Assembly (NCBI GenBank): GCA_015064685.1
Contig: SVRT01000004.1
Coordinates: 55,883 to 119,882 of the forward strand
Reading direction: 5' to 3'
From: Oscillospiraceae bacterium
Lineage (GTDB): Bacteria; Bacillota; Clostridia; Oscillospirales; CAG-272
Length of the DNA: 64,000 nucleotides
The translations under genes were made by a program, and so were the position numbers. Each line of letters opens with the position of its first letter. The stretch's first letter is position 1. Below the pieces are notes generated by a model. The model did no database searches and was not told where the DNA came from. It saw only the letters and a list, made by a program, of their open reading frames with translations. Below, one piece after another: positions 1,356 through 64,000 of this stretch.

Positions 1356-3731
1356 ATGAGAAACATTTTAACGAACAACGAGATAATTTTCTGTCAGGAG
1401 ATAAGCGAGGACGTTACCGTCAAAGCCACGGGCGTCATCATCCAAAACTGCAAAATAAACGGTAACATCTACCTTGAAAACGCAACCAACTGCCTTGTGG
1501 CTCAGAACGAGATAAACGGCAATATCACCGCTAAGAACACATATAACTCGGTAATTCTTCTCAATAAGGCGCAAAATATCACCGCCGAGAGCAATACAAA
1601 TCTTTACGTAGTCGAAAACACCCTCTCGGGTACGCTCGTACTTAAAGATAATAACTACCTCTTAGCAGATGCAAATGCCTCCGGAGAAACAATATCCGAA
1701 AATAACGAAAACTTCAACGGTGACAATATCACCGCCGTCAATTCCCGTCTCCCCCACGGAGCTGACCTTGACTTGCTCCCGCACGCAAATAAGGAGCTCT
1801 TTGTCGGTATGCCGAGACGCGAATCTGTCAACGCCCACGATACCGACGGTAGCGAGAGCATCGAAAAATATATCATAAACCGCGCAAAAGGCGGCACTGT
1901 CATAGTTCCCCCCGGAGCGTACGAAGCTCCCGAGCCCGTAAGACTCAATGCAGATGCATCAGGCTCGACTATCTATGCCTTCGGCGCATTTATGGAGATG
2001 CTCCCCTACGGAAACGCCTTTGTCATAACCAACGGAAATAACATCACCGTCAAAGGACTCGTCATAGGCTACGCACAACAACCTTGCGGACAGGTAACGC
2101 TTATCGAGGAGATCGATAAATACACCTTCCTCGCTCTCCCCTACGCAGGCTCGATAGACGGATTTGGCAAGACCGACACAAAATTCTTCAGCGGCGGCTT
2201 TACCGACATTTTCGCCGAGGGCATGAACTACCCCTGGGGAACGCTTGGCGGAGCGTATGATATCGAAAAGCTCGAGAACGGACTCTATAAGATCAGGATA
2301 TGGGATAGCTATCCCTTCAAGGACGACATAAAGAAGGGCACAAGACTTGCAAACCGCCTCGTCGGACCCGATAAGATATCCATCCTTATGAATTACTCGA
2401 AAAATATTCTCTTCAAGGATATCTTCTTATACTGCCATTCCGCCTGCCTCGCTGCAGTAGCAGGAGGTGCGAGCGAGAATATCCACTTCTACCGCTGGTA
2501 CAACGGAAACGAGGCGGCTCGGATCATAGACAAGGCGACCTATGACCGCTACCGCGCGATAGAAGAAAAATACGGTGTCACAGGTGAGGTCTATATCGAC
2601 TCTCTCGGCAGATACCGCGGAGGCACTCCCCTCATCTGCTCCTCCGACGCGACTCACATCAACGGATGCCGCCGCGGAGTAGATGCCACCTCCTGCCTAT
2701 TTGAGTCAATGTGCGACGACGGATCGAACCAGCGCGCGTCAAGCTCGCGCCTTGCGGGAGTCACCGATAACGGCGACGGCACAACCACACTCTACTATAA
2801 GGGTAGCGTCTCGCAGATCTATTGCCTCAACTTCTTCAACGAAAATAACCCCCGCCCCACCCCAAGCAAGTGTCAACCCATATCGAAGGGCGACAGAGTG
2901 CTTATATATACGGGAACGGGAGTCACCTTCTGCGATACCGAAGCCCTCTCTGACGAGATCGCCGTGGAGGACTACGACTTTATCATCTCCCCCGAGGGCA
3001 AAACACCTCGCCACTACTACGACACGGTAAAGAAATTCACCGTCGCAACGAGCGCGCTCAATATGGCGGCGATAGAGGGCTTTGACCTCTCGGACAACCA
3101 CTACGATATGAAAAACAAGGTGCTTGTCGACAATCTCAGCCGCAACAGCGCAGGCTTCCATTTCGATAACGTGTTGGTCAGAAATACGCGCTCTCGCGGA
3201 ATTTTGGTCAAGACCGTAGGCGCGACTGTTGAACACTGTACCTTCCAAAATCTCGGACACACGGGAGTTCTCCTCTCGGTCGAGTTCGTCTGGGGCGAGA
3301 GCTCTGTCAGCCAGGATATCACGGTCAAAAAATGTCTTTTTGATAACGTGGGCTTTATAAATAAAGGTATCGCAAACAAGACCCTTGCCCCCGTAGCGAT
3401 CAAGGGACTTTCCTCCACAGTCGACGAAAAGTCGCTCCTCTACAAGAACATCCTCATCGAGGGCAATCGCTTTATAAACAATCAAAATAACTACGCCGTA
3501 ACGGTGAACTCCGCGCAGGACGTCCGTATCGTGAACAACGTCTTTGAGGAGTCTGTCGGAGAGTCCGAGGGATACTCGAGAATGGTCATCGACGTCGAGA
3601 CCTCTATGAATGTTGAGATCTCTGATAACAAATACTCCAAATATCTCGCCAATATTGAGGACGGCATCAGCGCGAAAAACTTTAAAAATATCCACGGCAC
3701 CGATATCACCCTCAACGACGACGTAGAATAA
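1356..3731 (+). CDS. parallel beta-helix repeat protein (probable glycoside hydrolase or polysaccharide lyase fold), paralog 2
   Basis: 791-aa ORF with a GGAGG RBS upstream of the ATG. N- and C-terminal blocks of NxxIxxN / IEGNRF beta-helix rungs. No signal peptide. Paralogous to 1-1058 and 6055-8595. Confidence 0.75.
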   Translation: MRNILTNNEIIFCQEISEDVTVKATGVIIQNCKINGNIYLENATNCLVAQNEINGNITAKNTYNSVILLNKAQNITAESNTNLYVVENTLSGTLVLKDNNYLLADANASGETISENNENFNGDNITAVNSRLPHGADLDLLPHANKELFVGMPRRESVNAHDTDGSESIEKYIINRAKGGTVIVPPGAYEAPEPVRLNADASGSTIYAFGAFMEMLPYGNAFVITNGNNITVKGLVIGYAQQPCGQVTLIEEIDKYTFLALPYAGSIDGFGKTDTKFFSGGFTDIFAEGMNYPWGTLGGAYDIEKLENGLYKIRIWDSYPFKDDIKKGTRLANRLVGPDKISILMNYSKNILFKDIFLYCHSACLAAVAGGASENIHFYRWYNGNEAARIIDKATYDRYRAIEEKYGVTGEVYIDSLGRYRGGTPLICSSDATHINGCRRGVDATSCLFESMCDDGSNQRASSSRLAGVTDNGDGTTTLYYKGSVSQIYCLNFFNENNPRPTPSKCQPISKGDRVLIYTGTGVTFCDTEALSDEIAVEDYDFIISPEGKTPRHYYDTVKKFTVATSALNMAAIEGFDLSDNHYDMKNKVLVDNLSRNSAGFHFDNVLVRNTRSRGILVKTVGATVEHCTFQNLGHTGVLLSVEFVWGESSVSQDITVKKCLFDNVGFINKGIANKTLAPVAIKGLSSTVDEKSLLYKNILIEGNRFINNQNNYAVTVNSAQDVRIVNNVFEESVGESEGYSRMVIDVETSMNVEISDNKYSKYLANIEDGISAKNFKNIHGTDITLNDDVE

Positions 3732-3740
3732 ACTCCTGCA

Positions 3741-3994
3741 TTTCAAATTTTGATTTATCGGGGAGACGAACAATCCCTCAGTCACGCGCAAGGCGTGACA
3801 GCTCCCTTTACACAAGGGAGCTTTGTTGGTGGATGTTCGTACGCATTATAGATGTGAAACCCTTTTAAATTTAAAGAAAATTTCACTATATCCACGTTCT
3901 CCACCTTTCAGGTAAAGCTCCCTTGTGTAAAGGGAGCTGGCGCGCCTCCGTGCGCGTCTGAGGGATTGTTCGCCTCCCCGCTAAACCGCAATTT
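3741..3994 (-). repeat. type I nested palindromic element, copy 2 (Ia)
   Basis: Near-identical to copy 1, including both variable modules. It follows an identical gene 3' end, consistent with a tandem segmental duplication. Confidence 0.9.
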
Positions 3995-6054: not shown

Positions 6055-8595
6055 ATGACAACACAAGATTTTGAGAGATTGGTCGGCACTCCTCACGTCA
6101 GCGAGCCGATAGTACTTGAAAACGGTATATACGACGGACACGGCGGCGTCCTCCACGCCGACGGCGGTATCATAATCGACCGCGCAGGCTCTATCCTCCG
6201 CAACGTCACTATATACGGCAGCATCGCCGTAACGGGCAGAAACGCCGTTATCCAGAACTGTAAGATCAAGGCAGACACCTACGCGATCTTCGCCTCGGGA
6301 TGCGACGTGGTGATCAGAAACAACGAGATCGACGCGCCGAGCGCTATTATGATCGAGCCGGGCGCTCAAAACATCCTCATCGCGCAGAATAATACCCACG
6401 GAGACGTAAAAATAGACGGCGCGCTCAACTGCTCGGTCGTTCTTAATAAAGCTAACAAGATAAGCGTTGAGTCCTCCACGAGCGTCTACCTCTCGGCGAA
6501 CGATTTCGAGGGCAAGGCTACGCTGAAGAATAACGACTACCTCCTCTGCGACAACAACGCGGCAAGCGTGTTCGACGTATCTGGCAACAAAAATACCAAC
6601 GGTGACAATATAACCGACGTAAACGCGCGCGCAGAGTACGGCGCAAACGAGGATATCCTCCCCCACACCAACAAGAACCTCTTTGCAGGTATGCCAAGAA
6701 AAAAGACAGTCCTTGACGCAGACTACGACGAGATGCTCGACTTCACAGAGTACATCAAGAGAGAAGCGACCTCAAACCACATAGTCATCATTCCCCCCGG
6801 CGCATACGCGGTCGACCGCGAGATCTGGCTCGGCGCGGAATGCTCGAACTGCAAGATCTATGCCTACGGCGTATTTGCCGAGAAGACAGAGTATGCCGGC
6901 ACCTATACGGTAAGCGGTGTTGAAAACCTCGAGCTTCACGGTATCACCACGGGCTACGCTCAGCAGTCCTGCGGTCAGGTACACGTGCTTGACGTGATCG
7001 ACGATTGCACCTTCCTCGCAATCACCGCGGCGGGTATGCTCGACGATTTCGGCAAGAGCGATACCTCGCGCTTCCACGCGGGATTTGTCAATATCTTCAG
7101 GGCAGGTCATATAGAGCCCTACGGCAGCTTCGGCGGTAACTACGAGATCGAAAAGCTCGACGGTGGCGTTATGAAATTCACTATCCCCGAGAACCACGAC
7201 AAGGTCGGCAAGGTATATAAGGGAGATATCCTTACCTGCCGTATGGCGCTTCCCTTCCTCCGCTCCATCTACTTCGAGAACTGCAAGAACGTGCTTGTTA
7301 AGGACACCGTGCTGTACGGTTATTCCTCCGCGCTCGCTATAGTTATGTCGGGTGACTCTCAGAACGTGCGTATGGTAAGATGGCACGACACGGCGAAATT
7401 CTCTCCTGCGATCGAGGAGGCAACATATTCAAAATATAAGGCTCTTGAGGAAAAATACGGCGTTGATCTCGAGGTATACATCGACGACAGAGGCCGTTGG
7501 CGCGGCTCGACTCCGAGACTCAGCTCTATGGACTCATCTCACATCACAGGCTCGCGCGAGGGTCTGTCCTGTATCAGCTGCATTATGGAAAATATGTGCG
7601 ACGACGCAACCAACCAGCGAGCTTCAAGTGCGCGCCTGCACTCCCTCACCGACCTTGGCGACGGCAGGACCTCGCTGAAATACAAGCACTGCGCGACCGA
7701 GGTGTATTTCAACATCGACAGAAAGCCCACCGCGCGCGGCTCTCTCTGCCCTCCATTCAAGGCAGGCGACCATATTCTCGCCTACGCGTCGAGCGGTAGA
7801 ACGCTATGTAACACCCACACTCTCTCCGCTACCGAAAAGGTCGGCGAGCTTGAGTATACCATCACGGCTCCATCTCACTCAAAGGATTATACCGCGGATA
7901 TATTTGAGATCATAGTTCCCACGGCGGACGTTGATTTCTCTGTCATTGAGGGACTCGATCTCGAGGACAATCACTACCGACTTGACAACAAGGTATTTGT
8001 TGATAACCTTGACAGAAACAGCGCAGGCTACCTCTTCGACAACGTGCTTATGCAGAACGCGAGAGCGCGCGGCGCACTCGTCAAGACGGTCGACGCGACG
8101 GTTCGTAATTGCACCTTCAGAAATCTCCTCCACTCCGCGGTAATGTTCTCCGCAGAGCCATCCTGGGGAGAAAGCTCGGTGCCGCAAAACGTAGCTATCG
8201 AAAAGTGCCTCTTCGATCATACGGGTTATACCAACGAGGACTACGGCAACCGCCGCTATACGCCTATATCTGTCTACGGTCAGGGTACTCTGCTCGACAG
8301 AGACGCGCTTCTCTACCGTGACCTTTCTGTCCGTGAGTGCAAGTTCAAGAATATCTATACCGAGGTCTTCGTCTATATCAACGCAGCTCAGAAGGTCACT
8401 ATCGAGAATAATATCTTCGAGAGAAGCGAGAACAGCCCCTATAAGGATTCTCCCCTCATCCTCGACGTAACCCTCGCAGCAGACGTCACCTTCAAGGGTA
8501 ATACCTACCCCTGCGACGCAAAAGCCGAGGACAGAATCACAGGTCAGAGATACCAAAACGTCTCATTCGAGGGCGTATTACTCTCTAAGGATTAA
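6055..8595 (+). CDS. parallel beta-helix repeat protein, paralog 3
   Basis: The ATG at 6055 (MTTQDFERL) is preceded by AAGGGAAAGGA. The ORF-track start at 6013 would overlap the upstream gene. It aligns along its length with ORF 1356-3731 (GYAQQSCGQV, MCDDATNQRASSARL, NARARGALVKT). Confidence 0.75.
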   Translation: MTTQDFERLVGTPHVSEPIVLENGIYDGHGGVLHADGGIIIDRAGSILRNVTIYGSIAVTGRNAVIQNCKIKADTYAIFASGCDVVIRNNEIDAPSAIMIEPGAQNILIAQNNTHGDVKIDGALNCSVVLNKANKISVESSTSVYLSANDFEGKATLKNNDYLLCDNNAASVFDVSGNKNTNGDNITDVNARAEYGANEDILPHTNKNLFAGMPRKKTVLDADYDEMLDFTEYIKREATSNHIVIIPPGAYAVDREIWLGAECSNCKIYAYGVFAEKTEYAGTYTVSGVENLELHGITTGYAQQSCGQVHVLDVIDDCTFLAITAAGMLDDFGKSDTSRFHAGFVNIFRAGHIEPYGSFGGNYEIEKLDGGVMKFTIPENHDKVGKVYKGDILTCRMALPFLRSIYFENCKNVLVKDTVLYGYSSALAIVMSGDSQNVRMVRWHDTAKFSPAIEEATYSKYKALEEKYGVDLEVYIDDRGRWRGSTPRLSSMDSSHITGSREGLSCISCIMENMCDDATNQRASSARLHSLTDLGDGRTSLKYKHCATEVYFNIDRKPTARGSLCPPFKAGDHILAYASSGRTLCNTHTLSATEKVGELEYTITAPSHSKDYTADIFEIIVPTADVDFSVIEGLDLEDNHYRLDNKVFVDNLDRNSAGYLFDNVLMQNARARGALVKTVDATVRNCTFRNLLHSAVMFSAEPSWGESSVPQNVAIEKCLFDHTGYTNEDYGNRRYTPISVYGQGTLLDRDALLYRDLSVRECKFKNIYTEVFVYINAAQKVTIENNIFERSENSPYKDSPLILDVTLAADVTFKGNTYPCDAKAEDRITGQRYQNVSFEGVLLSKD

Positions 8596-8596
8596 T

Positions 8597-8849
8597 AAAT
8601 TGCGGTTTATGGGAGAGGCGAACAATCCCTCAGTCTCGCATTCGCTCGACAGCTCCCTTTACACAAGGGAGCTTTACCTCAAAGGTGAAAAACGAGGATG
8701 TAGTGACGTTTTTCCTTCAAATTAAAGGGTTTTTATGTCTACAAAGCGCACAAACATCCACCAATAAAGCTCCCTTGTGTAAAGGGAGCTGTCACGCCTT
8801 GTGCGTGACTGAGGGATTGTTCATCTCACCGATAAATCAAAATTTGAAA
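8597..8849 (+). repeat. type I nested palindromic element, copy 3 (centre intermediate between Ia and Ib)
   Basis: AAATTGCGGTTTATGGGAGAGGCGAACAATCCCTCAG ... CTGAGGGATTGTTCATCTCACCGATAAATCAAAATTTGAAA. Modules GTCTCGCATTCGCTCGAC (left) and GTCACGCCTTGTGCGTGAC (right). Confidence 0.9.
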
Positions 8850-10270: not shown

Positions 10271-10286
10271 ATGCTCATAGATCGAT

Positions 10287-10539
10287 AAATTGGGGTTTAT
10301 GGGAGAGGCGAACAATCCCTCAGTCTCGCATTCGCTCGACAGCTCCCTTTACACAAGGGAGCTTTACCTGAAAGGTGGAGAACGTGGATATAGTGAAATT
10401 TTCTTTAAATTTAAAAGGTTTTCACACCTATAATGCGTACGAACATCCACCAACAAAGCTCCCTTGTGTAAAGGGAGCTGTCACGCCTTGTGCGTGACTG
10501 AGGGATTGTTCGAACTCACCGATAAATCAAAATTTGAAA
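10287..10539 (+). repeat. type I nested palindromic element, copy 6 (Ia)
   Basis: AAATTGGGGTTTATGGGAGAGGCGAACAATCCCTCAG ... CTGAGGGATTGTTCGAACTCACCGATAAATCAAAATTTGAAA. It ends 18 nt before the GH2 ATG. Confidence 0.9.
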
Positions 10540-12866: not shown

Positions 12867-13120
12867 TTTCAAATTTTGATTTGGCGGTGTGTTCGAACAA
12901 TCCCTCAGTCTCGCATTCGCTCGACAGCTTCCTTTACACAAGGGAGCTTCACCTAAAAGGTTGAGAACGAGGCTGCAGTGAGTTTCACTTTATCCGTAAA
13001 GGATTTCACGGCTACAAAGCGCACAAACGTCCACCAACAAAGCTCCCTTGTGTAAAGGGAGCTGGCGCGCCTCCGTGCGCGTCTGAGGGATTGTTCGCGT
13101 CCCCTATAAACCGCAATTTA
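12867..13120 (-). repeat. type I nested palindromic element, copy 7 (Ib; interior inverted relative to termini compared with copies 1 and 2)
   Basis: TTTCAAATTTTGATTTGGCGG ... TATAAACCGCAATTT. The centre reads TCACCTAAAAGGTTGAG...CCACCAACAA, opposite to copy 1, which has the same terminus orientation. Confidence 0.9.
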
Positions 13121-13139
13121 TAAAAAAAGAGGTAAAAAA

Positions 13140-14878: not shown

Positions 14879-15236
14879 AAAAAAAATCACGGGATATGGC
14901 GTTGTGTTCCTAAGGACACAACGCCAACTCTATTCGCCTACGGCGAGTTCTATTGCATCGCAGTGATATTCGGCCCCAGCCGAGTGGTATTCGCTACGCG
15001 AGTTTTGAAGGCGAATAGAATATAACTGCTCTGCCTGCAGAGCAATATCACTTTTGCGAAGCGAAAATATCACGCTGTTGCAAAGCGACAGCATATCACT
15101 AAAAACTATCAGGAAGAGCGCACTTACTCACCACCGAAAGTGGTAGTGCTATACAAAAGAGCCGATACGGAATCAAATCCATATCGGCTTTTTTACTGTC
15201 CTTTAGCACCCGTAGCTATTTCCCCGTGATTTTTTC
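14879..15236. repeat. composite hairpin-array region bounded by AAAAAAATCACGGG / CCCCGTGATTTTTT
   Basis: Five plus-strand units of 7-mer (GGGATAT, ACTCTAT, GTTCTAT, GTGATAT, GTGGTAT) + short hairpin at 14891-15001. They face four minus-strand units (GTGATAT x3, GTTATAT + hairpin) at 15020-15099. Further hairpins follow. Confidence 0.75.
15161..15194. terminator. intrinsic terminator between convergent GH35 and pfkA
   Basis: GCCGATA...TATCGGC stem followed by TTTTTT on the plus strand. On the minus strand the same stem is followed by TCTTTTGT. Confidence 0.6.
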
Positions 15237-21957: not shown

Positions 21958-22202
21958 TTAATTGCAATTTAACGAGGAGACAATCCCTCAGTCGCCTATG
22001 GCGACAGCTCCCTTTACACAAGGGAGCTTTGTTGGTGGACGTTTGTGCGCTTTGTAGCCGTGAAATCATTTACGGATAAAGTGAAACTCACTACAGCCTC
22101 GTTCTCAACCTTTGAGGTGAAGCTCCCTTGTGTAAAGGGAGCTGTCGAGCGAATGCGAGACTGAGGGATTGTTCGAACGCCCCGACAAATCAAAATTTAA
22201 AG
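21958..22202 (+). repeat. type I nested palindromic element, copy 8 (Ib, degenerate left terminus)
   Basis: TAATTGCAATTTAACGAGGAGACAATCCCTCAG, module GTCGCCTATGGCGAC, hairpin AGCTCCCTTTACACAAGGGAGCT, centre TTGTTGGTGGACG..., right module GTCGAGCGAATGCGAGAC, then ...GACAAATCAAAATTTAAA. Confidence 0.85.
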
Positions 22203-22834: not shown

Positions 22835-23092
22835 AAATTGGGGTTTTACGAATAGCCTTCTCCAGCGGAGAAGGGGGACCACCGAAGGTGGTGGATGAGG
22901 AGGTCGCCATTAGGATGTATTTCACGGGAGCGGTGTGGATTTTGTCTTTTCGCGCAAAGATTCTTATGCATCGGAACAAGGTCTTTACACGGACGCGAAG
23001 CCCACAAAAGGGCGACCTCCTCATCCACCGCTAACGCGGTCCCCCTTCCCCGCTGGGGAAGGCTAAAGGCACCGATAAATCAAAATTTGAAA
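22835..23092 (+). repeat. type II element: same termini, interior built from CCTTCYCC/GGRGAAGG and GGTGGATGAGGAGGTCGCC modules
   Basis: AAATTGGGGTTTTACGAA ... CACCGATAAATCAAAATTTGAAA. Arms carry sub-hairpins CCTTCTCCAGCGGAGAAGG, ACCACCGAAGGTGGT / ACCGCTAACGCGGT and CCTTCCCCGCTGGGGAAGG. Confidence 0.9.
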
Positions 23093-23125
23093 CAAAAAAA
23101 GGGCTGACGGTGTCAGCCCTTTTGG
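23093..23125 (-). terminator. intrinsic terminator of the vWA operon
   Basis: GGGCTGAC-GGT-GTCAGCCC with a T-run on the minus strand (complement of AAAAAAA at 23094-23100). The same stem sequence recurs at 27861-27881. Confidence 0.8.
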
Positions 23126-26168: not shown

Positions 26169-26318
26169 GGCGGTCTCCTTTTCTTTTTTTCGGGCTTCAA
26201 CCTATATGTCGCAAAAAAATGTGGATGGTTACATTTTTTTGCTATTTTTTTCAAATTTTTTTCTAAGCCTTCACCCGTTGACTTTATCTTACCATATTAT
26301 TTATATTGTGTCAATGAT

Positions 26319-26571
26319 AAATTGCGGTTTATGTGGGAGGCGAACAATCCCTCAGTCTCGCATTCGCTCGACAGCTCCCTTTACACAAGGGAGCTTTACC
26401 TGAAAGGTGGGGAACGTGGATATAGTGAAGTTTTCTTTAAATTTAAAAGGGTTTCACATCTATGATGCGTACGAACATCCACCAACAAAGCTCCCTTGTG
26501 TAAAGGGAGCTGTCACGCCTTGTGCGTGACTGAGGGATTGTTCGAACTCACCGCCAAATCAAAATTTGAAA
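26319..26571 (+). repeat. type I nested palindromic element, copy 9 (Ia)
   Basis: AAATTGCGGTTTATGTGGGAGGCGAACAATCCCTCAG ... CTGAGGGATTGTTCGAACTCACCGCCAAATCAAAATTTGAAA. Same module set as copies 3 and 6. Confidence 0.9.
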
Positions 26572-27572: not shown

Positions 27573-27602
27573 AAGGAAGAGATGAAAGTCTCTTCCTTTT
27601 TT
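27573..27602 (+). terminator. intrinsic terminator
   Basis: GGAAGAGA-TGAAAG-TCTCTTCC followed by TTTTTT. Confidence 0.8.
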
Positions 27603-27606
27603 GATG

Positions 27607-27858
27607 AATTGCGGTTTATCGTGGAGGCGAACAATCCCTCAGACGCGCACGGAGGCGCGCCAGCTCCCTTTACACAAGGGAGCTTTGTTGGTGGACGTTT
27701 GTGCGCTTTGTAGCCGTGAAACCCTTTACGGATAAAGTGAAACTCACTGCAGCCTCGTTCTCAACCTTTTAGGTGAAGCTCCCTTGTGTAAAGGGAGCTG
27801 TCGAGCGAATGCGAGACTGAGGGATTGTTCGAACTCACCGATAAATCAAAATTTGAAA
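27607..27858 (+). repeat. type I nested palindromic element, copy 10 (Ib)
   Basis: AATTGCGGTTTATCGTGGAGGCGAACAATCCCTCAG, module GACGCGCACGGAGGCGCGCC, centre TTGTTGGTGGACG..., right module GTCGAGCGAATGCGAGAC, then ...CCGATAAATCAAAATTTGAAA. Confidence 0.9.
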
Positions 27859-31066: not shown

Positions 31067-31160
31067 CTCTCTCACCTCCAAAATAGCACATATATATGTA
31101 TTATATCAAATAATTGGTAATTTTACAAGAGATTTATAAAATATTGTTCCATAATTCGAT

Positions 31161-31412
31161 AAATTGGGGTTTATGGGAGAGGCGAACAATCCCTCAGACG
31201 CGCACGGAGGCGCGCCAGCTCCCTTTACACAAGGGAGCTTTACCTGAATGGTGGAGAACGCGGATATAGTGAAGTTTTCTTTAAATTTAAAAGGTTTTCA
31301 CATCTATAAAGCGTACGAACATCCACCAACAAGCTCCCTTGTGTAAAGGGAGCTGTCGAGCGAATGCGAGACTGAGGGATTGTTCGAACTCACTGACAAA
31401 TCAAAATTTGAA
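31161..31412 (+). repeat. type I nested palindromic element, copy 11 (Ia centre with a different module pair)
   Basis: AAATTGGGGTTTATGGGAGAGGCGAACAATCCCTCAG, module GACGCGCACGGAGGCGCGCC, centre TTACCTGAATGG..., right module GTCGAGCGAATGCGAGAC, then ...TGACAAATCAAAATTTGAA. Confidence 0.9.
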
Positions 31413-31626
31413 GCTATTCTGACGTAAAATCACCTTTTTTATGTTATTTGTAAATAAAAGTATTACCTTGTAAAAATAGGATATATTGGATATTTTTAGG
31501 CGGTGTTTGTTAATTAAATGTCACAGATTCTTGACATTTTTTTGTCAGTGGCAATTTTTTATAAAATGCCCCAAAATTCGACGCTCCGATTTAGTGCAAT
31601 TTTCACATAGGGGTTTTAAAAAACTA

Positions 31627-36975: not shown

Positions 36976-37251
36976 ATGAATGAAGCACTCGGAATGGTAG
37001 AGACCAGAGGACTTGTAGCTGCAATCGAGGCAGCAGATGCTATGGTAAAGGCAGCAAACGTACAGCTTATCGGCTCTGAGAAGATCGGTAGCGGACTCGT
37101 ATCCGTTATGGTTCGCGGCGACGTTGGCGCAGTTAAGGCTGCAGTTGAGGCCGGCGGCGCAGCAGCAGCTCGTCTCGGCGAGGTTGTTGCAACTCACGTT
37201 ATCCCCAGACCCCACACAGACGTTAACAAGCTCCTCCCCACACTCGGTTAA
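36976..37251 (+). CDS. BMC-H shell protein (PduA/EutM-like)
   Basis: [29 protein letters not shown]...VIPRPH is a canonical hexamer shell sequence. AAGGAG RBS. Confidence 0.95.
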
Positions 37252-37273
37252 TTTTTGTAAGACAAAAATTAAC

Positions 37274-37382
37274 GTGAAATTTGTCCTTTGGACAAGTGAA
37301 ATATTGCTACGCAATGTGAAATACGCCTTCGGCGTGTGAAATGTCGCTTGCATACAAGCTACATGAATATTTGCGAACGCAA
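37274..37382 (+). repeat. array of five GTGAAAT + variable hairpin units between two shell genes
   Basis: GTGAAAT-TTGTCCtttGGACAA, GTGAAAT-ATTGCtacGCAAT, GTGAAAT-ACGCCttcGGCGT, GTGAAAT-GTCGCTTGcataCAAGCTAC, ATGAATAT-TTGCgaacGCAA. It is preceded by the hairpin TTAATTTTTGT-aag-ACAAAAATTAA (37248-37272). Confidence 0.85.
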
Positions 37383-37428
37383 CGGGAAGCTTGTCCAAGG
37401 GCAGATCAATCTATTTAGGAGACAGGCT

Positions 37429-37710
37429 ATGGAAAATGCAATTGCATTGCTTGAGGTTCAAGCTATGGTAACGGCTATCGTCGGTCTTGACGCTATGGTC
37501 AAGGCTGCTAACGTAAAGCTCATCCACGTTGAAAAGCGTCTGGGTGGCAGACTCGTTACGGTCGTCGTTGAAGGCTCAGTCTCGGCTGTCACTGCCGCAC
37601 TTGAGGCGGGAGTCGAGGCCGCCAAAGCTGTCGGTCGTGTTGCGTGCGCAGAGGTAATCGCACGTCCGCATGCCGACATTATGAGATTTATTAAAACCGA
37701 TAAGGTTTGA
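37429..37710 (+). CDS. BMC-H shell protein
   Basis: ATG at 37429 (TAGGAGAC RBS). [32 protein letters not shown]...VIARPH. The track start at 37336 is a GTG inside the hairpin array. Confidence 0.9.
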   Translation: MENAIALLEVQAMVTAIVGLDAMVKAANVKLIHVEKRLGGRLVTVVVEGSVSAVTAALEAGVEAAKAVGRVACAEVIARPHADIMRFIKTDKV

Positions 37711-37823
37711 GTTGAATTTTTCCGTCTTACGGCGTTGCTCCTCAAAAGCGGCTCGACTTACGCAGGTAAGTCATCACCCGGGCTTTTGCGGTGCGCCTTG
37801 TCAGGCGAAAAAAATTCCAACTC
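37709..37823 (+). repeat. multi-hairpin intergenic cluster closed by a long-range stem
   Basis: GAGTTGAATTTTT ... AAAAATTCCAACTC encloses the hairpins CCGTcttACGG, GACTTACgcagGTAAGTC, CAAAAGC...GCTTTTG and CGCCTtgtcAGGCG. Confidence 0.7.
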
Positions 37824-37895
37824 AATTAACAACAAAAAAATCGGGTTATTCCCGTTAAAATTTAAAAAAATTTATCCAAAAAGGAGATTTTAACT

Positions 37896-38189: not shown

Positions 38190-38295
38190 GCGCGCTTTGC
38201 GCGCAACGCGTTTCCTGCCCGATCTTCGGGCAGGAAACGGGAGATTGTTTCAATATGAAGATTACCGAGCCCTATCGGCACGCTTCATATTGAAA
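38190..38295 (+). repeat. three strong hairpins between shell gene and pduL
   Basis: GCGCGCtttGCGCGC (38190-38204). GTTTCCTGCCC-gatcttc-GGGCAGGAAAC (38210-38238). TTTCAATATGAAG...CTTCATATTGAAA (38248-38295). None is followed by a U-tract. Confidence 0.75.
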
Positions 38296-40732: not shown

Positions 40733-41278
40733 ATGTATCAGGCAGTTGGTGTAATTGAGCTTAAAAGCATTTCAAAGGGTATAGAGGCGACCGACGCGGC
40801 TCTCAAGAGCGCGGGCGTTACCCTCATTTCCGCTCGCGCGGCTTGTCCAGGCAAGTTTGAGATGATCCTCACGGGTACTATATCAAACGTGACGAGCGCG
40901 GTCGAGCACGTCAAGAGCCGCTTTGACGACAAGCTCGTTGACGTCTCCATTATGGGACGTATCGACGAGCAGGTCATCACCGCTCTTTTCGGCACGGTAC
41001 TTACGGAAAAGAAAGGAAGCCTCGGCGTAATAGAGACCTTCTCTGCTGCTTCCATCATCAAGGCGGCTGATATCGCCGTCAAGACTGCAAAGGTCGAGAT
41101 ATTCGAGCTTCGCGCCTCCCGCGGTATGGGCGGCAAGGGCATTTGCCTTATCACCGGCGAGGTCGGCGACGTGACCGCCGCAGTCGAGGCAGGAAGCCAG
41201 CACGCAAAGGATCAGGGCGTTTTCTGCAACAGCGCAGTTATTCCCGCCCCCCACGAGCTTCTCTGGAGTCAGATCTAA
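40733..41278 (+). CDS. BMC-T tandem-domain shell protein (PduT-like)
   Basis: Two BMC domains in 181 aa (AVGVIELKSISKGIEATDAALKSAGV and SLGVIETFSAASIIKAADIAVKTAKV). Cys in ARAACPGKF sits where PduT binds its Fe-S cluster. Confidence 0.85.
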   Translation: MYQAVGVIELKSISKGIEATDAALKSAGVTLISARAACPGKFEMILTGTISNVTSAVEHVKSRFDDKLVDVSIMGRIDEQVITALFGTVLTEKKGSLGVIETFSAASIIKAADIAVKTAKVEIFELRASRGMGGKGICLITGEVGDVTAAVEAGSQHAKDQGVFCNSAVIPAPHELLWSQI

Positions 41279-41280
41279 GG

Positions 41281-41326
41281 GGATGCGAGAGGATGCGAGG
41301 GGATGCGAAGGGATGCGAGGAGATGC
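41281..41326. repeat. 10-bp tandem repeat GGATGCGAGG x ~4.5
   Basis: GGATGCGAGA GGATGCGAGG GGATGCGAAG GGATGCGAGG AGATGC, starting 3 nt after the PduT-like stop. Confidence 0.9.
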
Positions 41327-41330
41327 ATTT

Positions 41331-41602
41331 GGGGAACTTTTTTAGGAAAAGTTCCCCAAGCCCCTCAAAACCTTCCAAAAAATTGGTTTGGTTTAAGACT
41401 TTTTATTGAACTAAACCGTGTAGCACTTGCATAGTCTCTCTGCTACCGTGTTGCAAGTGTATTTTGAGTCGTTAAATTAATAAATTAATAAATTAATAAA
41501 TTAATAAATTAATAAATTAATAAATTAATAATAGAGACCTCCTCGGAGTCCTTTTCAGGAAAGTTTTTGGAGGTTTGGAACCTTTTTTCAAAAAGGTTCC
41601 AA
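41331..41602 (+). repeat. type V long palindromic element / leader L1 upstream of the GRE gene
   Basis: Left end GGGGAACTTTTTTAGGAAAAGTTCCCC + CCCCTCAAAACCTTCC. Right end GGAAAGTTTTTGGAGG + TTGGAACCTTTTTTCAAAAAGGTTCCAA. The ends are mutually inverted. It is paralogous to 44163-44412. Confidence 0.75.
41474..41530. repeat. octanucleotide microsatellite (AAATTAAT) x7
   Basis: Seven perfect tandem AAATTAAT units inside leader L1, about 85 nt upstream of the GRE start. Confidence 0.95.
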
Positions 41603-46557: not shown

Positions 46558-46608
46558 GGCGACCTCCACAGCCTATGCAAGCGGTCCCCCTTCCCCGCTG
46601 GGGAAGGC
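46558..46608. repeat. fragment of a type II element arm
   Basis: GGCGACCTCC...GCGGTCCCCCTTCCCCGCTGGGGAAGGC matches the right arm of 22835-23092. No termini are present. Confidence 0.7.
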
Positions 46609-46621
46609 GAAAGGGGAAAAT

Positions 46622-47413
46622 ATGTCAAAGACCAAAACCATCTGCTTTGCCAACAACAAGGGCGGAAGCGGAAAATCCACCACCTGCGCGAACATCGGCT
46701 ATTCGCTCTCGACGCTCGGCAAACGCGTGCTTCTCATCGACGCTGATATGCAGATGAACCTCACGCTCCAGTTTTTTGACGACGAGACCTCGCTTGAAAT
46801 GGCGAAAAGCGGCAAAAATATTTACGTCGGCGTGACAGAACAAAAGGATCTTTCGGATTTTGTCGTGCCGACCGAATACGAAGGGCTTGATATGATCCCC
46901 TCCTCGACTCTTATGAGCGGGATCGAGTTCCAGCTCTTTACAAAGTGGCAGAGAGAATTTATTCTCCGTCAGGGACTTAAGTCGATCAAGGAATCGGGCA
47001 AGTATGATTACATACTCATCGACGCGCCTCCCACGCTCGGCTGCTGGGTAATGAACATCATGTGCGCGTCTGATTACCTCGTAATTCCCGTTGAGGCATC
47101 GCCCTGGGGGCTTTTCGGACTTGCGAATATGTTTGAATTCTACGAGCAGGTCAAGCTGATATCCCCCACGCTTAATCTTATGGGAATTGCTATCACGAAG
47201 GCGAGCGAACGCAAGAATTACTTCAAGCAGACCGTCGAAACACTCTCGTCGCTTGATAACGTAAGACTCTTCGAAACAATAATCCGCATCGACTCAAACG
47301 TCGAGTGGTCGCAGGATAACTCAAAGCCCGTTATGGTCTATAAGAGATCAAGCCGCGCGGCACAGGAATATTTTGAAATGGCAAAGGAGATCGAAAAATA
47401 TGTCGATAGGTAA
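46622..47413 (+). CDS. ParA/Soj/MinD-family P-loop ATPase
   Basis: ATG at 46622 (AAAGGGGAAAA RBS). Deviant Walker A NNKGGSGKST with the signature Lys. LLIDADMQ and YILIDAPP motifs. Confidence 0.85.
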   Translation: MSKTKTICFANNKGGSGKSTTCANIGYSLSTLGKRVLLIDADMQMNLTLQFFDDETSLEMAKSGKNIYVGVTEQKDLSDFVVPTEYEGLDMIPSSTLMSGIEFQLFTKWQREFILRQGLKSIKESGKYDYILIDAPPTLGCWVMNIMCASDYLVIPVEASPWGLFGLANMFEFYEQVKLISPTLNLMGIAITKASERKNYFKQTVETLSSLDNVRLFETIIRIDSNVEWSQDNSKPVMVYKRSSRAAQEYFEMAKEIEKYVDR

Positions 47414-49084: not shown

Positions 49085-49114
49085 AAAACGGAGAGATTTT
49101 TCTCTCCGTTTTTG
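49085..49114 (+). terminator. intrinsic terminator (copy of 47811-47840)
   Basis: AAAAA-CGGAGAGA-TTTTT-CTCTCCG-TTTTTG. Confidence 0.85.
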
Positions 49115-49120
49115 TTTGTC

Positions 49121-49387
49121 AAATTGGGGTTTGTCAGTGTGATAAGCCTTCCCCAGCGGGGAAGGGGGACCGCGTTAGCGGTGGATGAGGAGGTCGCCCT
49201 TTCAAGGGCTTTTCGTCTGTAAAAAAGCTTTGTTTCGTTGCAAAAGAATCCTTATGCCACAAAACAAAATCCACGATACACCCGTGGCGCGCGTCCTAAT
49301 GGCGACCTCCTCATCCACCACCTTCGGTGGTCCCCCTTCTCCGCTGGAGAAGGCTATTCGCAACAGTTAGACAAATCAAAATTTGAA
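49121..49387 (+). repeat. type II element, interior inverted relative to copy at 22835-23092
   Basis: AAATTGGGGTTTGTCAG ... TTAGACAAATCAAAATTTGAA. The CCTTCCCC/ACCGCGTTAGCGGT arm is on the left here and on the right in the other copy. The centre is its reverse complement. Confidence 0.9.
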
Positions 49388-63645: not shown

Positions 63646-63761
63646 TTAAAGCACCTCAAATAACTTTTTCTAAAATCATTAATCAAGTATTACAAAACCT
63701 CGCTCAAAGCATAACCAATCCTCGAGAAACGGGAGTGCTTGAACGCGAAAAATGGAAAAAC

Positions 63762-63843
63762 AAGCCGCGCAAAAACTTTTCGAGACAAGGCGCACCGCAA
63801 AAAGCAAAGCGATGGCGTAGTTCCCTACGTCGAGCTGCTTTTG
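63762..63843. repeat. ~82-bp direct repeat, unit 1
   Basis: AAGCCGCGCAAAAACTTTTCGAGACAAGGCGCACCGCAAAAAGCAAAGCGATGGCGTAGTTCCCTACGTCGAGCTGCTTTTG. Confidence 0.9.
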
Positions 63844-63917
63844 AGGAGCAACGCAGTATCGGGAAGATTTTGATGGCTTTATTCGCCCGTTTCCAAAAAA
63901 CAGTAGTTTGGCAATAA

Positions 63918-64000
63918 GAAGCCGTGCAAAAACTTTTCGAGACAAGGCGCACCGCAAAAAGCAAAGCGATGGCGTAGTTCCCTACGTCGAGCTGCTTTTG
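63918..64000. repeat. ~82-bp direct repeat, unit 2 (reaches the window edge)
   Basis: Same sequence as unit 1 except for one visible substitution (CCGTGC vs CCGCGC). The period is 156 bp. Confidence 0.9.

Follow-up and report, generated by a model that had tools for sequence, protein, structure and literature searches.

Between two shell-protein genes of a glycyl-radical-enzyme bacterial microcompartment (BMC) operon in an Oscillospiraceae bacterium lies a string of GTGAAAT heptamers ("heads"), each followed by a short hairpin, and the locus raises the question what kind of element this string is and whether it serves the microcompartment. It was analyzed within a stretch of 64,000 nucleotides (contig SVRT01000004.1 of assembly GCA_015064685.1, positions 55,883 to 119,882 of the forward strand), here called the window. 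A sequence-only reading of the window had recognized five units and had offered three candidate roles, namely multivalent binding of an RNA-binding protein, staged exonuclease barriers that set the ratio of shell proteins to enzymes, or DNA elements resembling repetitive extragenic palindromes (REPs). It missed the identity of the array with a published motif, Gut-1 (RF01706). As to its role, we give about even chances to the reading that the array is a dispersed repeat comparable to REPs and bacterial interspersed mosaic elements (BIMEs), which would be co-transcribed and act as a modest decay barrier or attenuator and would not be a dedicated regulator of the BMC. The REP-like role was also the one of the three candidates that best fitted the comparative data.

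The array and its identity with Gut-1

The spacer between the genes for BMC-H shell proteins 1 and 2 (BMC-H1 and BMC-H2; H1-H2 spacer) and its borders hold the following features, all on the plus strand.

36976..37251 (+), gene for BMC-H shell protein 1, 91 aa, Pfam BMC domain (E = 4.8e-30), upstream of the array
37247..37273 (+), AT-rich 12-bp hairpin GTTAATTTTTGTaagACAAAAATTAAC with the TAA stop codon (37249-37251) within its stem, from the sequence and a hairpin scan
37272..37347 (+), match to the Rfam covariance model of Gut-1 RNA (RF01706), three hairpins joined by GUGAAAU
37274..37295 (+), unit 1, GTGAAAT and hairpin TTGTCCtttGGACAA, folding free energy (dG) -7.0 kcal/mol including the A-U and U.G closing pairs
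37296..37315 (+), unit 2, GTGAAAT and hairpin ATTGCtacGCAAT, dG -4.0 kcal/mol
37316..37335 (+), unit 3, GTGAAAT and hairpin ACGCCttcGGCGT, the Gut-1 consensus hairpin, dG -7.8 kcal/mol
37336..37362 (+), unit 4, GTGAAAT and hairpin GTCGCTTGcataCAAGCTAC with one C/T mismatch, dG -7.7 kcal/mol
37363..37382 (+), unit 5, degenerate head ATGAATAT and weak hairpin TTGCgaacGCAA, dG -2.5 kcal/mol
37390..37404 (+), CTTGTCCAAGGGCAG, an imperfect second copy of hairpin 1, from the minimum-free-energy fold of the spacer
37417..37431 (+), ribosome-binding site AGGAGA and ATG of the BMC-H2 gene, from the sequence, reading frame checked
37429..37710 (+), gene for BMC-H shell protein 2, 93 aa, Pfam BMC domain (E = 3.6e-19), downstream of the array

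The Gut-1 match at 37272-37347 on the plus strand was the sole Rfam match above threshold in the 64-kb window. With a gathering score of 50 for the family, it reached 79.3 bits (E = 2.8e-14) and covered model positions 1-77 of 77. In the Gut-1 model the last two bases of a head (A and U) pair with the first two of the next head (G and U), leaving GAA linkers, and alignment to the consensus structure gave the same architecture here, with three consecutive hairpins, GUGAAAU between them and A-U and U.G closing pairs. The third hairpin of the window, ACGCC-UUC-GGCGU, is the family consensus itself. The source agrees as well, as loci with an identical BMC-H2 protein and further pattern matches (see below) came from gut metagenomes and from metagenome-assembled genomes (MAGs) of ruminant- and human-gut Clostridia. 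In all these respects the array is like Gut-1, and we conclude that it is a member of this catalogued and already known family.

Gut-1 was described by Weinberg et al. (2010) from 43 representatives, all of them in human-gut metagenomes and absent from any sequenced organism (PMC2864571). The authors judged it 'certainly RNA, probably not cis-regulatory, not a riboswitch' and put forward no function; the alignment holds 18 covarying positions and marks stop codons just upstream of the motif (PMC2864571). Rfam files Gut-1 as type 'Gene; sRNA'. In literature searches covering the heads, RF01706 and REP-like repeats in these taxa, Gut-1 appeared only in the 2010 paper.

The array itself is real, with the unit count, coordinates, invariant heptamer and distinct stems that the sequence-only reading had given. 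Exact GTGAAAT heads start at 37274, 37296, 37316 and 37336, and the head spacings, the degenerate fifth head included, are 22, 20, 20 and 27 nt. The hairpins of the exact-head units fill the whole space between heads, and each inter-head segment is an end-to-end palindrome. Counted on both strands, the window holds 15 copies of GTGAAAT compared with 8.2 +/- 2.7 in shuffled sequences, an enrichment to which the array contributes 4 of the 15 within 69 nt. About 3e-8 chains of four heads with start-to-start distances of at most 39 nt are expected by our own arithmetic from the shuffle density, and four in-register heads within 69 nt are not due to chance. The statement that every stem differs holds for the array; between genomes, stems such as ATTGC..GCAAT and ACGCC..GGCGT recur. 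The unit 2 stem was found again at L012, L041, L073, L104, L112, L118 and L124 (L numbers denote the other loci compared), and the unit 1 hairpin TTGTCCtttGGACAA also occurs in GTGATAT-type arrays of other strains.

The H1-H2 spacer folds with a z-score of -5.3. The hairpin at 37247-37273, which carries no head, has a dG of -10 kcal/mol (z-score -5.9) and is common to all array-bearing strains described below (L001, L002 and L004-L010). The stability of the unit 5 hairpin (-2.5 kcal/mol) is no different from that of shuffled sequences. In the minimum-free-energy fold CTTGTCCAAGGGCAG can pair with the hairpin-1 region, so enclosing the array, and its counterpart is kept as CTTGTCCtaGGACAT in L002-type strains.

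The surrounding locus has genes for acetate kinase, a class II aldolase, aldehyde and alcohol dehydrogenases, five proteins with BMC domains, PduL, EutN, an RnfC-like protein and a PFL-like glycyl-radical enzyme with its activase. No promoter-like or terminator-like sites were found on the plus strand between 36.9 and 38.3 kb and therefore the array should belong to the operon mRNA, as the sequence-only reading had expected of a sense-strand array inside an operon. An open reading frame (ORF) at 37336-37710, which starts at the GTG of head 4 in frame with BMC-H2, was discarded; it lacks a ribosome-binding site, and BMC-H2 truly begins with the ATG at 37429. A plain tandem repeat was likewise dismissed; Tandem Repeats Finder did not report the array because its units differ.

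A dispersed and fast-changing family of gut Clostridia

The family was surveyed in one genome per species with a pattern of three GTGAWAT heads 12-16 nt apart, which returned at least 120 stretches. All family-wide counts (79 arrays, 209 units, 17 composites and the like) are lower bounds, taken among the matches listed. True arrays, at least 79 in all, were present in about 70 of the loci. Nearly all of these come from MAGs of Clostridia from the guts of ruminants and humans, namely Oscillospiraceae, Acutalibacteraceae, Ruminococcaceae, Christensenellaceae and unclassified 'Clostridia/Eubacteriales'. Pattern matches in other phyla were plain tandem repeats without hairpins. As a control, hairpin-filled chains made up 4 of 111 three-head matches in viral contigs compared with 79 of 140 in genomes, and an association with phages was rejected, with real arrays in only 2 of 120 pattern-matching viral contigs. 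At the Rfam threshold, 24 further Gut-1 matches were obtained in 20 loci, comprising related strains and MAG loci; none fell in the array-less strain L003.

Among the 209 units, stems have 5-6 bp (range 4-8), inter-head segments are end-to-end hairpins, the loop is closed by a C-G pair in 85%, and loops are mostly UUC, UUU, UGC, UAC, UUGC or UUAC. There are 168 distinct hairpins, and the variable stems hold 1176 Watson-Crick pairs against 10 G.U pairs (10/1186, <1%). RNAalifold applied to 44 four-head blocks kept 10 of 12 pairs despite changes on both sides, with the closing A-U pair in 42 and the U.G pair in all 44, a pattern of pairing from which the hairpins are evidently under selection. 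Folded as RNA, the head strand is more stable than the complementary strand in 73 of 74 arrays (-24.5 vs -18.9 kcal/mol), mainly owing to the A-U and U.G pairs that the conserved heads contribute, so that the difference is partly by construction. At the end of one-way arrays there is usually GTTRAGGA or GTGAAGGA and, behind it, another hairpin, which is sometimes a terminator. As a side observation, the heads contain TGA, and with periods of 20 and 22 nt four heads put TGA in all three frames of the head strand; in two MAG loci (L099 ~7010-7013 and L124 ~335-338) the TGA of the first head seems to be the stop codon of the ORF upstream.

A second form of the family is the composite, in which an inverted block follows the first. 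The window holds one such element.

14895..15218 (+), second Gut-1 locus, ~325-nt composite element of the inverted/composite form, with Gut-1 matches below cut-off
14898-14925, hairpin P0 of this element
14930-14938 and 15010-15018, long-range helix formed by CTATTCGCC and GGCGAATAG, enclosing GTGATAT-type units
remainder of the element, three inverted units (hairpin and ATATCAC), a further hairpin and a terminator-like hairpin at 15158-15192

The sequence-only reading had noticed the same logic at 14.9-15.1 kb, and sub-threshold Gut-1 matches indeed lie there on both strands, at 14925-14995(+) with 37.5 bits and at 15040-15116(-) with 28 bits. The architecture of this GUGAUAU composite matches that of GUGAUAU-type sequences in the Weinberg seed alignment, and a stereotyped order was seen in 17 copies: a strong hairpin, TNTATTCGCC, three to four hairpin units (some with degenerate heads), GGCGAATANA, and three to four inverted units (hairpin and ATATCAC). 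The flanks TNTATTCGCC and GGCGAATANA form a long-range helix that covaries at one position (A-T, C-G or T-A). The 17 copies are mutually 72-90% identical and their flanks are unrelated by tblastx; the window composite at 14895-15218, terminator-like hairpin included, is 83% identical to L106, again with unrelated flanking genes. Contigs from other samples break inside the 14.9-kb composite. Beyond these two loci the window yielded no arrays; chains of relaxed heads at 31083-31126 and 1522-1582 were judged chance.

Gene calls around the arrays were made with a codon log-odds caller trained on long ORFs of the array loci. All 79 arrays are intergenic. The gene upstream shares the strand of the heads in 53 cases and lies on the opposite strand in 18, and most of the latter are inverted halves of composites or arrays after tRNA genes. 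Restricted to co-directional gene pairs, a re-reading of the contexts gave about 24 sense against 4 antisense. Only four arrays lie between divergent genes, and the first head often starts 17-35 nt past a stop codon. The genes with 3' ends towards the arrays are of all kinds: 74 proteins gave 128 unrelated Pfam families, including PFK, GH35 beta-galactosidase, MreB and regulators, besides tRNA genes, and no family occurred more than three times. A recurrent link to BMCs, to a pathway or to any gene family was not found in the Pfam annotation of these 74 genes, and since the families are unrelated Gut-1 arrays are not tied to microcompartments or any pathway. Separately, several composites or arrays (L030, L049, L063, L075, L090 and L109) stand directly behind tRNA genes and their A-tract/T-tract terminators; such copies would sit beyond a terminator and not in a 3' untranslated region (3'UTR).

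Strain variation at the BMC locus was read from ten contigs of other samples (L001-L010) that encode a BMC-H2 protein identical to that of the window. The H1-H2 spacers of L001 and L009 are identical to that of the window. In L005, whose flanking genes have 97-99% nucleotide identity, there are three exact GTGATAT heads and a degenerate first head, making four units with mostly different hairpins. Six GTGATAT units are present in L002 (83-97% identity), L004 and L010 and also in L006 and L007 (89-98%), and L008 (82-97%) has five and a degenerate first head. L003 has no array at this site, with 97.6-99.4% identity in the flanking genes other than EutN (95.0%). At 2911-3000 it has just GTGAAAAGTGAATAgg-ttttgc-TATTCACTTTCAC, without inserted hairpins, which forms a hairpin of two head-like sequences paired with two anti-head-like ones (GTGAAAAGTGAATA..TATTCACTTTCAC).

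Within any one array the head variant is uniform, and it differs between strains. From its sequence, the L005 array looks like a six-unit array minus two units excised exactly at heads. Among the six-unit alleles substitutions lie in loops or are compensated (TTCG..CGAA vs TCCG..CGGA), and the tail behind the array diverges freely. A second array stands after the paralogous BMC-H3 gene in L002, L004, L006, L007, L008 and L010 and none is there in the window; it contains the same hairpins as the H1-H2 array in another order, and its first 50 nt are common to it and the array after BMC-H1. Examination of the site after BMC-H3 for an insertion footprint showed about 38 nt replaced by about 196 nt, with no target duplication and no clean empty site. 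Furthermore, 22 of 71 arrays lie less than 200 nt from a contig end, where 3.3 were expected; there are several copies per MAG, and in one MAG six arrays lie at contig ends, several with the same unit sets. Gut-1 behaves as a dispersed, fast-turning-over repeat family of gut Clostridia.

Two observations concern the sequence around BMC-H3. In the window, BMC-H3 is followed at 38190-38239 by the hairpins GCGCGCtttGCGCGC and CGTTTCCTGCCCGAtctTCGGGCAGGAAACG; the latter is a strong 14-bp hairpin kept in all strains, and in L002, L006 and L008 a Gut-1 array replaces the sequence from the BMC-H3 stop codon to it. The spacer between BMC-H2 and BMC-H3 (37711-37835) holds an insertion of about 115 nt with inverted-repeat flanks (GTTGAATTTTT...AAAAAAATTCCAAC) that is absent in L002 and L008 and is related, in inverted orientation (80% over 75 nt), to repeats at 63756-63843 and 63913-64000; it is a third repeat family, polymorphic inside the BMC operon.

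These properties set Gut-1 as found here apart from its description as a probable free-standing noncoding RNA: the unit number varies, the arrays lie in sense orientation directly behind stop codons, and they occur in many ruminant and human gut MAGs, variable between strains and dispersed among unrelated loci. Such repeat-element behavior is absent from the original description. Placement in Clostridia MAGs, modular unit number, the composite architecture with its covarying long-range helix, sense placement next to stop codons, dispersal and strain-level polymorphism all go beyond what was reported in 2010.

What the repeat may do

Among known systems the REPs, BIMEs and REPINs (REP doublets) of Proteobacteria (PMC3733652, PMC3116915) come closest. 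They share with Gut-1 the short palindromes with an unpaired conserved tag at one end, the multi-copy extragenic location downstream of ORFs and between unidirectional or convergent genes (PMC3733652), the occurrence in clusters and inverted pairs, the variation in location between strains and, as expected for Gut-1 here, co-transcription. The REP325 array of the E. coli yjdMN operon stabilizes the upstream mRNA and attenuates read-through, and is thus an intra-operon stabilizer and attenuator (bioRxiv 10.64898/2026.03.23.713779). Unlike REPs with their GTAG or CGTC tags, Gut-1 has a 7-nt GTGAWAT tag; its stems of 5-6 bp vary between units whereas those of REPs keep to a single consensus within a genome, its units are mostly direct tandem repeats and its hosts are Firmicutes. 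Nor is Gut-1 known to be associated with a RAYT (REP-associated tyrosine transposase), the Y1 HUH transposase whose gene is flanked by REPs. Gut-1 may hence work like a REP or BIME but is not one, because its tag is neither GTAG nor CGTC and its stems are not conserved between units.

A Gut-1 unit consists of the heptamer tag (GTGAAAT or GTGATAT) and a short hairpin; units are strung head to tail and often joined by a second, inverted block. Copies stand just behind stop codons, sense to the upstream gene, and arrays are rapidly gained, lost, resized and reshuffled, on this model by recombination or slippage at the identical heads and by replacement of whole arrays. As it lies inside the BMC operon, the array would be transcribed with the polycistronic mRNA. 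In the RNA, A-U and U.G pairs from flanking heads would close each hairpin with GAA linkers between, and the hairpin string would most likely hinder 3'-to-5' decay modestly at successive points, and perhaps transcriptional read-through as well. The predicted outcome is that the BMC-H1 segment is favored over the downstream genes, an effect that would be a strain-variable by-product of the repeat family and not the work of a dedicated microcompartment regulator.

A precedent for such an outcome is provided by stem-loops at 3' ends that set subunit stoichiometry in Clostridium operons such as cip-cel (PMC4423207). In these systems, known as SRPS (selective RNA processing and stabilization), stem-loop stability sets relative transcript levels (PMC4423207, PMC8219983), and they resemble the array in being intercistronic 3'-end stem-loops in operons for multi-subunit assemblies. 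However, SRPS stem-loops are single, gene-specific and co-evolving with their gene, whereas Gut-1 is a repeated family with conserved linkers that accompanies unrelated genes and is dispensable in close strains.

Several findings weigh against the REP-like reading. The individual hairpins are weak (-2.5 to -7.8 kcal/mol) and may be too little to stop PNPase-type exonucleases. Stem pairing, with less than 1% G.U and single mismatches without strand bias (A.C 6 vs G.U 5 in a wobble-pair strand test), looks more like that of DNA palindromes than of typical RNA. Loops on the head strand are U..C in 82 of 172 and G..A in only 4, and the complement accordingly has C-GNA-G and GNRA loops, kinds known for great stability in mini-hairpins of DNA. 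The conservation of the heads across orders of Clostridia would imply a conserved trans-acting factor, and no recurrent transposase was seen among the 74 neighbor genes in 8-kb tiles, a check of very low power without a systematic search for mobilizing genes.

The near-perfect Watson-Crick palindromes and the loops of the complement strand would also suit a purely DNA-level selfish element, in which the tagged hairpins serve as single-stranded DNA substrates of a dedicated enzyme and effects on RNA are incidental. A nuclease of the HUH type resembling RAYT or IS200/IS605, or a head-specific recombinase, would then copy, invert and reshuffle the units. Inverted blocks resembling transposon ends or REPINs, homologous copies in unrelated contexts, identical copies that break assemblies, the different unit order in two arrays of one strain and the empty-looking L003 allele of only paired heads and anti-heads fit this explanation too. 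We nevertheless hold it to be rather unlikely, given that no associated transposase was among the 74 neighbor genes (at low power), that the BMC-H3 alleles differ by replacement with neither target-site duplication nor clean empty site, that copy-and-paste of units with different stems needs long divergence under selection for structure, and that strict placement after stop codons and a U.G closing pair possible only in RNA suggest selection on the transcript.

A related proposal, which we regard as doubtful, is that a dedicated factor recognizing the GTGAWAT tag and hairpin builds and reshuffles units singly, which would make Gut-1 a Firmicute class of mobile element with cassette-like exchange, distinct from REP/RAYT. 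It fits because the head variant is uniform per array and yet strain-variable at the same site, units are re-ordered, 'empty' alleles of heads and anti-heads exist and stems have so little G.U; the complement-strand GNA/GNRA bias may then reflect a single-stranded DNA substrate.

That Gut-1 is a dedicated structured RNA, free-standing or derived from a 3'UTR, whose GUGAAAU-hairpin units bind several copies of a protein as a scaffold or sponge, appears improbable to us. It agrees with the rating 'certainly RNA' and the 18 covarying positions (PMC2864571), with identical single-stranded linkers repeated as in multivalent binders, with heads conserved across families of Clostridia and with the better fold of the head strand, itself partly by construction. 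Yet the arrays are not preceded by promoters and start 17-35 nt past stop codons, and the operon context without a promoter-like site points to co-transcription with the upstream gene rather than to a free-standing small RNA. The loops have no fixed motif, only the U..C bias, and lack the GGA of CsrB/RsmZ; closely related strains differ freely in the number and content of units and can even be without the array, and there are several copies per genome in random gene contexts.

Highly improbable, finally, is a BMC-specific device evolved to set the ratio of shell protein to enzyme in the operon: the array does follow the major BMC-H gene, other strains do add a second after the paralogous BMC-H3, and operons of Clostridium do owe complex stoichiometry to SRPS stem-loops (PMC4423207), but members of the family also stand behind PFK, GH35 beta-galactosidase, tRNA genes, regulators and over 100 further gene families, L003 with BMC genes 98% identical is without it, the window itself has none after BMC-H3, and the first 50 nt shared by the H1 and H3 arrays fit gene conversion between paralogues and not independent selection. 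The link to stoichiometry implied by the sequence-only reading found no support in the comparisons, as neighbor families are unrelated (128 Pfam families, 74 genes) and strains 97-99% identical differ in the array or lack it.

Further candidates were discarded on structural grounds. The array is not an intrinsic terminator, which would have a G+C-rich stem and a run of U behind it, there being no terminator-like site on the plus strand at 36.5-38.5 kb and each hairpin being followed by GUGAAAU. A CsrB/RsmZ-type sponge would require a GGA loop class, and the loops are UUC, UUU, UGC, UAC and similar. In a CRISPR array the repeat has at least about 23 nt and the spacers are non-palindromic and about as long, whereas here the repeat has 7 nt and the 'spacers' are self-complementary hairpins of 12-20 nt. 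Antiterminator targets of ANTAR proteins (EutV type) in BMC operons are pairs of hexaloop hairpins, with A first and G fourth in the loop, that overlap a terminator; loops of 3-4 nt and no terminator exclude such a target. GTGAAAT..ATTTCAC resembles the half-site of TTGTGAA-N4-TTCACAA operators of the Rex/CRP type, but the heads are direct repeats separated by hairpins. Kissing of UUC loops with the GAA of the heads was rejected since loop spectra are the same in GTGAAAT and GTGATAT arrays.

With Gut-1 lacking an assigned function since 2010, its view as a REP-like repeat behind stop codons, in place of a free-standing small RNA, gives concrete tests. The natural alleles of one BMC operon, with six, four or no units or another head variant, are a ready allelic series for mRNA decay and read-through. 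Gut-1 arrays also break metagenome assemblies of gut Clostridia and make strains differ in noncoding sequence within operons that are otherwise conserved. What follows for microcompartment biology is mostly negative, the array being no conserved part of the BMC locus; the result is useful context for an orphan motif and will not surprise the specialist.

Other repeats of the window

The window contains at least 12 copies of a repeat of about 260 nt, called Type I, that folds as a long hairpin; copies include 8594-8849, 10284-10539, 12869-13124, 22001-22201, 26316-26571, 27596-27858, 31160-31415, 1185-1322 and 3857-3994. They have terminal inverted repeats (GAACAATCCCTCAG / CTGAGGGATTGTTC), conserved AGCTCCCTTtacacAAGGGAGCT hairpins and a center of the form GTGAAAT..TTTTCAC, and their slots hold hairpins of variable sequence, the same logic of conserved linker and variable hairpin as in Gut-1. 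The recurrence of GTGAAA in these elements, remarked upon before, was confirmed: at least 5 of the 11 GTGAAAT copies outside the array lie inside the ~260-nt repeats. Rfam returned no family match for Type I repeats, only weak matches to generic long-hairpin models.

The 290-nt spacer between the BMC-T gene and that of the glycyl-radical enzyme holds exact-looking tandem repeats, 4.9 copies of AGGGGATGCG (41278-41326) and 7.4 copies of TAAATTAA (41473-41531). Another dispersed family with GCGGTCCCCCTTCCCCGCTGGGGAAGGC hairpins occurs at 23036-23084, 46581-46629 and 49327-49375, and includes an inverted 258-nt pair (22846-23103 / 49106-49363) that is 83% complementary and lies 26 kb apart.

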